Shown piece after piece: positions 33,050 through 33,222 of a stretch of 42,175 bases of DNA (position 1 is the stretch's first letter; every line of letters begins with the position of its first letter). The stretch lies in NCBI GenBank assembly GCA_023645945.1, contig JALAIB010000042.1:1-42175 (forward strand), in the 5' to 3' direction. Both the position numbers and the translations under genes were made by a program. The notes beneath the pieces are model-generated. The model ran no database searches, was not told where the DNA came from, and worked only from the letters and a program-made list of their open reading frames with translations. The stretch comes from Diploschistes diacapsis. Taxonomy: Eukaryota.

Positions 33050-33222
33050 GCCTTTATAGCTCAGTGGTAGAGCGTTGGTTCGTGTTCCTCTTCCCTTTTC
33101 TTCTTTACTCTCAGCTGACCCCTATGCATCACTTGTAGAACGTTTGGCCGGGGCGGAAAAAGCTCTTGACAGATGCGTGACGAGAAATGCAAAGGTCACA
33201 GGTTCGATCCCTGTTGGAGGCA
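33050..33222 (+). tRNA. tRNA-Thr(UGU) in three pieces: 33050-33077, 33130-33137, 33187-33222
   Basis: The joined sequence GCCTTTA TA GCTC AGTGGTA GAGC G TTG|CA CT TGT A|A TGCAA AGGTC ACAGG TTCGATC CCTGT TGGAGGC A is a 72-nt cloverleaf. The anticodon stem TTGCA/TGCAA and T-stem ACAGG/CCTGT are perfect, A and B boxes are intact, and the Thr-type G1-C72, C2-G71 pairs are present. Confidence 0.85.

Follow-up and report, generated by a model that had tools for sequence, protein, structure and literature searches.

The subject of this analysis is a transfer RNA (tRNA) gene in a 42,175-nucleotide (nt) stretch of DNA from Diploschistes diacapsis (contig JALAIB010000042.1), referred to below as the window. 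The segment 33050–33222 on the plus strand is a nuclear ascomycete gene for tRNA-Thr(UGU) that is interrupted twice. The downstream interruption, called intron 2, is, as judged from its predicted fold, an ordinary 37/38 intron and a predicted substrate of the tRNA splicing endonuclease (SEN) and the ligase Trl1 in the usual helix-and-bulge form. The upstream interruption, called insert 1, splits the 5′ strand of the anticodon stem, and its sequence features give good support to an origin as a spliceosomal intron. We give a probability of about 40% to the reading that the gene is still in use and that insert 1 is removed exactly. This tentative reading is based on the flawless exons and on a related organism in which the located differences avoid the exons and insert 1 and pile up in intron 2. 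A live gene requires the exact excision of insert 1; from the sequence, neither the AG rule nor a complete bulge-helix-bulge, the known routes, fits such a removal.

The identity of the gene was examined with Rfam and ARAGORN. The Rfam tRNA model RF00005 covered 33050–33222 on the plus strand with 44.3 bits (gathering score 29) over model positions 1–71 of 71, with a single gap of 112 nt within the anticodon arm. No family other than tRNA was above threshold across the 42-kb window, and in a scan of 32700–33600 only one of the six listed matches, that to tRNA, was at or above its own gathering score. When 33078–33129 and 33138–33186 were excised in a script, the three exonic pieces (28 + 8 + 36 nt) gave a 72-nt RNA that ARAGORN called as an intronless tRNA-Thr(tgt). 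The minimum free energy (MFE) fold of this spliced form was a perfect cloverleaf, in which the joined exons had all stems paired, a 7-nt anticodon loop and the anticodon UGU. Given the native locus, ARAGORN yielded no tRNA in its default mode and in intron mode miscalled a tRNA-Met(cat) with a 91-nt intron, so a genome census could wrongly report a missing Thr(UGU) tRNA. The consensus sequences of the A and B boxes and the terminator rule of RNA polymerase III (Pol III) were applied to 33057–33067, 33201–33211 and 33230–33254, where the first T run (T9) occupies 33230–33238; by this reading, the internal Pol III promoter and the terminator of the gene appear intact. The initial annotation of this locus, made from the letters of the sequence, had proposed a tRNA-Thr(UGU) gene with intervening sequences at 37/38 and 29/30, intact exons, boxes and terminator, and a layout that tRNA scanners would mis-call. 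All of this was borne out, the boxes and terminator as read from the sequence and the rest by the Rfam match, by ARAGORN and the cloverleaf on the spliced form, by the pairing of every stem and by the 10 colinear genes described below.

Intron 2 pairs with the anticodon loop through a 4-bp helix (33132–33135 with 33181–33184) that lies between two 3-nt bulges and adjoins the anticodon stem (hBH type). The cut in a bulge-helix-bulge falls after the second base of the bulge, and intron 2 conforms to this. In a register test all four pairs were formed, and the outer helix, which is the anticodon stem, was present.

Other Thr(UGU) genes were sought by scanning metagenome contigs with a 21-mer from exon 1. 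The scan found at least 121 stretches, giving at least 120 loci with at least 122 matches; those listed were mostly bacterial or unrelated tRNAs. The aligned set consists of the 10 of the 122 listed matches in which CACTTGTA comes directly after the 21-mer. All 10 were colinear with the exons in the window, and in two of them (L052 and L028) the acceptor stem and the first 37 exonic bases were identical to those of the window gene. A 37/38 intron was found in 4 of the 10 (L028, L035, L087 and L106) and not in the other 6, whereas none had any insertion between TTG and CA. Thus, what is odd here is insert 1; intron 2 is ordinary for the family. Among the 122 matches listed, none had CACTTGTA displaced further downstream, and two scans of prokaryote genome contigs for stray fungal contigs gave 0 matches each.

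One further match from the metagenome scan is recorded here as a separate observation. L092:233-329, on the minus strand of a metagenome contig, resembles a tRNA gene. About 20 additional bases stand between its copy of the 21-mer, whose last letters are TTG, and the point where the anticodon arm apparently resumes; ARAGORN called the gene tRNA-??? with a 4-base anticodon. These bases could be a further insert, located close to position 29/30 or at it.

Insert 1 was then considered by itself. Introns of filamentous fungi typically have a pyrimidine tract between the donor and the branch site, and a CTRAC branch motif. Insert 1 opens with GTTCGT (33078–33083), which places its GT within a GTNNGT-type donor; 27 of the 28 bases at 33085–33112 are pyrimidines; and GCTGAC at 33114–33119 is a CTRAC-type branch motif, whose A33118 is 11 nt from the end of the insert and 20 nt from the next AG. 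The candidate introns that would join open reading frames (ORFs) in the window have similarly loose donors (GTTAGT, GTGGGT, GTGAGC and GTTGGC, with T at +3 in some), CTGAC or CTAAT branch motifs, and YAG ends. The layout GTNNGT..CTRAC..YAG begins at 11 of the 84,350 positions of the window, both strands counted (about 1 in 10,000), and 33074 and 33078 are two of these 11. The units starting there have a pyrimidine content of 0.74–0.75, as against 0.61 or less for the other nine layouts, and only three non-overlapping 28-mers with 27 of 28 pyrimidines occur in the window. These counts agree with the description of the signals in the initial annotation as spliceosomal-like and show them to be non-random. 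Alone, insert 1 was unstructured (MFE −0.5 kcal/mol, z +0.86), and its pairing with any exon or with intron 2 was never above that of shuffled sequences (P 0.34–0.98). An unstructured, unpaired insert fits a spliceosomal intron and not a structure-defined tRNA intron, and because its pairing is no stronger than in shuffles, the helix between the D arm and the insert in the MFE fold is not meaningful. As to an introner-like or other multi-copy element, the 42-kb window contains no second copy of the insert, the longest other match being 11 nt.

Several other candidate features of insert 1 were tried and rejected. For an origin by local duplication, the best alignment with the flanks scored 27, inside the range of the shuffles (maximum 28). 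Avoidance of Pol III terminators was suggested by a longest T run of 4, yet 47–65% of shuffles also had runs of 4 or less. By eye, a CTGA was seen but no C box, as would be needed for a small nucleolar RNA of the box C/D type, and the junction was unique, leaving no shift of the boundaries that would give an AG or a repeat. With the one ambiguous alternative, 33078–33126 (GT..TG), the anticodon arm would keep three bases too many. The junctions also do not appear to match the loop consensus of an Ire1/HAC1-type site.

The conservation of the locus was examined in contigs from sequencing runs. X1, a lichen-metagenome run and the probable source, spans the full window, and runs of other studies cover parts of it. 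X2 ('organism A') is from another study, and the contigs of X3 and X4 gave no cover over 33033–33254. Of the five runs listed, none was an RNA run. The X1 contig (25,072 nt) is identical to the window over 32700–33800 and is unbroken through the tRNA gene. In X2, contig record 5 (220 nt, depth 67.9) spans 33037–33222 with both inserts present. An artefact, such as a chimeric join or a misassembled repeat in a normal tRNA gene, would suit the low-complexity runs that flank the locus (32957–33004 and 33223–33259), where short-read contigs break; with both inserts in a contig of another study, and with the X1 contig identical, its probability is negligible. The initial annotation had named an assembly artefact among the findings that would refute it; X2 contradicts this, and also an insert unique to one assembly. 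The reading of base 33129, the last of insert 1, stands: it is T in X1, and no difference is listed there in X2.

Over 33037–33222, the X2 contig differs from the window by 5 substitutions and 8 gap letters. The four substitutions with a known place (33143, 33154, 33155 and 33179) and the six such gap letters (at 33138, 33161, 33163, 33172 and 33174) all lie in intron 2. The located differences are thus confined to 33138–33179, and none is listed for the exons or for insert 1. The listing, which covers 12 rows of insertions and deletions and omits differences near contig ends, leaves one substitution and two gap letters without a place. No change is listed in the final 7 nt of intron 2, the part that pairs with the anticodon loop. 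Insert 1 is likely unchanged in X2, as judged from these differences. X2 flank contigs of like depth had 18 substitutions in 666 nt (2.7%), plus gaps. At this flank rate, the probability of no substitution in the 124 nt of exons and insert 1 is 0.035; it is 0.004 for no change of any kind when indel events are allowed (about 4.4%), and 4e-5 for no substitution at the rate of intron 2. For insert 1 alone, the probability of no substitution is 0.014 at the rate of intron 2. The listed events, 0/52 in insert 1 versus 9/49 in intron 2, give a Fisher P of 0.001, and the substitutions only (0/52 versus 4/49) a Fisher P of 0.052. This pattern, from one close relative, argues against even, neutral decay.

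The X2 flanks at 32720–32889 and 33404–33579 exist in two contig versions, with depths of about 62–78 and 30–32 and with different distances to the window. They may represent two strains, haplotypes or species. The tRNA gene itself is covered in X2 by only one contig (depth 67.9), of two flank versions.

A number of points weigh against continued use of the gene. To the unlocated differences mentioned above are added the following: the conservation rests on one close relative (about 3% substitutions); at the flank rate, the probability of no substitution in insert 1 alone is 0.25; the insert is absent from all 10 aligned genes; and insertions in eukaryotic tRNA genes, which mostly affect one of many synonymous copies, are by default taken for pseudogenes in the literature (PMC4090602). 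The remaining points concern the removal of insert 1 and are given with the two known routes below.

An insertional pseudogene is nearly as probable as a gene in use. A spliceosomal-type intron, or a piece of one, would have entered one redundant Thr(UGU) copy by reverse splicing and recombination or by DNA capture; its terminal AG would have been lost (CAG to CAT, 33129) or never have been present, and the transcript could not mature. The intact exons in two related genomes would then reflect a short time since the insertion, together with chance. Such a history needs no new biology, and exact excision fits no known machinery. It accounts for an insert that ends one base change from CAG and that the 10 homologous genes lack. 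It also agrees with the statement by the authors of tRNAscan-SE 2.0 that eukaryotic tRNA genes have at most one intron each (PMC8450103). In so close a relative, the probability of no substitution in the 72 exonic nt is 0.14 at the flank rate. The distribution of the X2 differences is harder to reconcile with a dead gene: all those located are in the 49 nt of intron 2 and none is in the other 137 aligned nt, for which P is about 6e-6 if there were nine independent events and 1.3e-3 if there were five. A pseudogene thus requires a coincidence of about 0.4–4% in the conservation pattern, and the exons are flawless, with every stem paired and no decay seen. The unbroken X1 contig over the 36-nt 3′ exon also weakly disfavours identical parent copies. 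Contigs of the X1 type are presumably built from a 31-mer graph; on that assumption, the unbroken contig gives a weak suggestion that the X1 assembly lacks another locus whose 3′ exon is identical over 31 nt or more.

The first known route for removal of insert 1 is the spliceosome. Insert 1 ends in TATGCAT (33123–33129), with CAT at 33127–33129, so that its last base (33129) separates it from CAG by one change. The 3′ boundary that restores the exons is AT, not the AG of U2-type 3′ splice sites. In fungal annotations, GT-AG accounts for 98.715%, GC-AG for 1.009% and AT-AC for 0.019% of splice-site pairs, or 99.74% for the three, and the remaining pairs together for 0.257% (PMC7072748, Table 1). 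The first AG past the branch motif is 33137–33138, and its use removes positions 30–37 including the anticodon. This canonical AG, 9 nt downstream of insert 1, would be preferred and would destroy the tRNA. When the tRNA was rebuilt without 33078–33138, ARAGORN returned nothing better than an implausible Ser(aga), with an intron of 40 nt, in line with the loss of the anticodon that had been expected for this AG from the sequence.

The same unit, 33078–33138, could be a real spliceosomal intron of an RNA polymerase II (Pol II) transcript, either a read-through from the neighbouring MFS gene or a non-coding RNA, with the tRNA-like exons incidental. The complete GTNNGT..CTRAC..YAG, the 20 nt from branch to AG and the strong pyrimidine tract suit this explanation. 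Removal of the unit joins no ORF of 60 codons or more, however, and the unit is not among the 21 ORF-joining candidates. The A of its AG is A37 of the tRNA, and the G is a base with which the canonical intron of L087 also begins, so that the AG can be coincidental. A Pol II intron also leaves the intact tRNA exons, the Pol III boxes and the terminator unexplained, and we regard it as very improbable.

The second known route is the tRNA endonuclease. A bulge-helix-bulge has 3-nt bulges, a 4-bp helix between them, and flanking helices h/h′ of more than 2 pairs (PMC3728597, figure legend). In insert 1, the 3-nt bulges 33076–33078 and 33128–33130 place both junctions after the second base, and the central helix is in exact register, with 4/4 pairs. 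This partial register makes the tRNA endonuclease a second candidate for the excision. A 4/4 register was found by chance in 2.0% of random site pairs and in 20 of 624 shifted boundary pairs. The flanking helices are absent, the outer one being a mismatch followed by 2 pairs and the inner one having 1 of 6 pairs. When the bulge-helix-bulge was forced, the precursor folded at −31.2 kcal/mol versus −49.8 kcal/mol for the MFE fold, a cost of about 19 kcal/mol, and the D stem was melted. The true anticodon stem with insert 1 bulged out had −30.3 kcal/mol, about 17–19 kcal/mol worse than the alternatives.

In the MFE fold, the 3′ end of insert 1 pairs with the 3′ strand of the anticodon stem. This alternative helix mimics the 5′ strand of that stem; a fold constrained to it had −47.9 kcal/mol, 1.9 kcal/mol above the MFE, and still presented intron 2 normally. 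The whole precursor was no stabler than shuffles (z −0.16; z −0.07). Insert 1 contains two 6-base palindromes, CAGCTG (33112–33117) and ATGCAT (33124–33129); the stand-in helix and the bulge-helix-bulge core are both built on the latter, with which the insert ends.

With this helix, insert 1 might also remain in the product. SEN would remove only intron 2, and a stable tRNA-like RNA of about 124 nt would keep insert 1 as a CU-rich extra segment, or the DNA would serve as an element bound by TFIIIC/Pol III; the conserved part would be the part that stays. The conservation of exons and insert 1, with intron 2 free to change, is exactly the pattern this predicts, and the end of the insert can take the place of the anticodon stem's 5′ strand (33125–33129 with 33187–33191) while intron 2 is still presented. 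The 124-nt form, however, was not unusually stable (z −0.86), insert 1 was unstructured when folded alone, and only the tRNA family reached its Rfam gathering score at the locus. The split TTG...CA, complementary to TGCAA, and the complete anticodon loop make sense only for a tRNA. Decoding would be unlikely for an RNA whose anticodon loop has 8 nt and which has a large insertion where the D and anticodon stems form their hinge, and a role as promoter only would constrain about 22 nt, not 124. We consider retention of insert 1 improbable.

If, as we tentatively prefer, the gene is in use, its history and maturation might be as follows. Insert 1 would have begun as a spliceosomal-type intron that entered the tRNA gene, in parallel to the ectopic introns of lichen ribosomal DNA (rDNA) and of fungal small nuclear RNA (snRNA) genes, and the exons and insert 1 would now be under purifying selection. 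The Pol III transcript would mature by two separate excisions. SEN/Trl1 would take out intron 2, and a second reaction would cut exactly at G29|G and U|C30; this second reaction is the weak link of the proposal. In a spliceosome-type route, the first step would occur at 33077/33078 with the branch at A33118, and the 3′ strand of the anticodon stem might keep the two exon ends next to each other, thereby fixing a 3′ site that is not AG. The invariance of insert 1 relative to intron 2, together with its lack of structure, would indicate recognition by sequence, for which reason a spliceosome-type route is slightly preferred among the routes open to a live gene, although on its own it must be called unlikely. 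An endonuclease-ligase cut at the partial bulge-helix-bulge is a somewhat fainter prospect, and what is left falls to a route without an existing description. The initial annotation had suggested a tRNA that needs two splicing machineries or a non-AG 3′ splice site. The specific version, in which the pre-tRNA needs two unrelated systems and the spliceosome excises insert 1 at a non-AG site guided by the anticodon-stem 3′ strand through alignment of G29 and C30, appears doubtful, with long odds against it.

Several known systems resemble this gene in part. In the nucleus of Cyanidioschyzon merolae and the nucleomorph of Guillardia theta, tRNA genes have 2–3 intervening sequences, some of them outside 37/38 (PMC3728597, PMC4090602). 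Removal of these ectopic introns is described for C. merolae and also for a nucleomorph, where most of them cannot form a bulge-helix-bulge (PMC4090602, PMC3728597). It was confirmed by RT-PCR, whereas the excision of insert 1 is a proposal. The algal introns are described either as short (3–24 nt, nucleomorph) or as having a full bulge-helix-bulge with flanking helices, and spliceosomal signals do not figure in those descriptions; insert 1, in a fungus, is 52 nt long, unstructured and spliceosome-like, with a central helix only. Archaeal tRNA genes of the Thermoproteales have several introns (up to three), including some in the anticodon stem, which scanners miss and which need stepwise removal (PMC8450103). 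Unlike insert 1, they are described as recognised purely by the bulge-helix-bulge, without spliceosome-like sequence (PMC8450103). Insertion pseudogenes of eukaryotes, as characterized in PMC4090602, share with this gene an insertion in one copy, at a non-canonical site, with no recognised excision signal; they differ in that here the exons are flawless and the located X2 differences avoid the exons and insert 1.

Two further parallels come from spliceosomal introns outside mRNA, which the initial annotation had cited for fungal U6 and ribosomal RNA (rRNA) genes and which are indeed published (PMC5855946, PMC8527467). Lichen ascomycetes have mRNA-type introns in rDNA, that is, in structural RNA genes not transcribed by Pol II (Bhattacharya et al. 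2000, cited in PMC8527467). These introns are removed by spliceosomes, and yeast spliceosomes remove them from RNA polymerase I (Pol I) transcripts, a transplanted lichen intron being reported as spliced out in yeast (PMC8527467). The host here differs, being a Pol III tRNA and not a Pol I rRNA, and the exon-restoring end of insert 1 is AT; the lichen rDNA introns presumably end in AG. Introns of mRNA type also occur in some fungal U6 (Pol III), U1, U2 and U5 snRNA genes and rRNA genes (PMC5855946), and those of U6 in fission yeast and other fungi are, like insert 1, spliceosomal-type introns in a Pol III transcript (Tani and Ohshima; Takahashi et al., via PMC5855946). They are thought to arise by reverse splicing into abundant non-coding RNA (PMC5855946). 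The snRNAs sit in the spliceosome and tRNA does not, and the list of hosts given in PMC5855946 has no tRNA.

Our search, which covered open-access literature, turned up neither a tRNA gene described as having a spliceosomal-type intron nor a nuclear tRNA gene with two introns in fungi. Textbooks and software allow eukaryotic nuclear tRNA genes a single intron at most, at 37/38 (PMC8450103), with a red alga and nucleomorphs as the known exceptions. A live gene would be the first doubly interrupted nuclear tRNA gene in a fungus, and its excision route would follow from neither the AG rule nor that of the bulge-helix-bulge. It would also place an mRNA-type intron in a class of host missing from the non-coding RNA carriers listed in PMC5855946. 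Should two systems in fact act on the transcript, it would be the first case of a spliceosomal intron in a tRNA gene, and the ectopic introns of lichens would extend from Pol I rRNA to Pol III tRNA. Even a dead gene would document cleanly that intron sequence of spliceosomal type has landed in a tRNA gene, and so would bear on the spread of introns into abundant RNAs.

The coordinates of the gene and its parts are given in Table 1.

Table 1. Features of the tRNA-Thr(UGU) locus in the window
Feature	Position	Strand	Description
Exon 1	33050..33077	+	tRNA positions 1–29: acceptor 5′ strand, D arm, G26, TTG of anticodon stem; Rfam alignment
Insert 1	33078..33129	+	52 nt, between G29 and C30; from sequence
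Exon 2	33130..33137	+	8-nt micro-exon, positions 30–37: CA of anticodon stem, C32, U33, TGT, A37
Anticodon TGT	33134–33136	+	Inside exon 2
Intron 2	33138..33186	+	49 nt, canonical 37/38 site, directly after A37
Exon 3	33187..33222	+	Positions 38–73: A38, stem 3′ strand TGCAA, variable loop, T arm, acceptor 3′ strand, discriminator A
A box TAGCTCAGTGG	33057–33067	+	In exon 1; from sequence
B box GGTTCGATCCC	33201–33211	+	In exon 3; from sequence
T runs T9, T8, T5	33230..33254	+	Begin 8 nt past the discriminator base; Pol III terminator by sequence
Only GT-AG unit	33078..33138	+	61 nt; AG = A37 + first base of intron 2; pattern scan
Possible bulge-helix-bulge core, insert 1	33072..33127	+	Helix 33072–33075/33124–33127 (G-C, C-G, G-U, U-A)
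Alternative helix	33125..33191	+	Insert 3′ end TGCAT (33125–33129) with ATGCA (33187–33191); MFE fold

The neighbours of the tRNA gene are an MFS transporter gene upstream on the plus strand and a UBX-domain gene on the minus strand, identities that were taken from 3 of 13 ORFs. The closest Atlas clusters of the UBX protein were mostly from Ascomycota. Just upstream of the tRNA gene, 32910–33004 contains G- and C-runs (GGGGGGAGG..CCCCTCCCTCCCC..GGGGGGAAAGGG) followed by a (TCCTT)n-like pyrimidine microsatellite. The X2 and X3 short-read contigs stop within this segment, of which 32957–33004 was treated as a repeat and skipped in the contig comparison.

In the metagenome scan, eight loci (L019, L032, L040, L042, L059, L061, L084 and L094) had the 21-mer followed by a near-identical ..GCGTAGCATTCGGGAGGTC.. 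and a common tail; from their sequences, these look like copies of a tRNA-derived repeat, similar to a short interspersed element, in one sample series. Further upstream in the window, two candidate spliceosomal introns on the plus strand would join the MFS_1 frames: 31394–31450 (57 nt), with GTGGGT..CTGAC..CAG, and 31674–31791 (118 nt), with GTGAGC..CTAAT..CAG.

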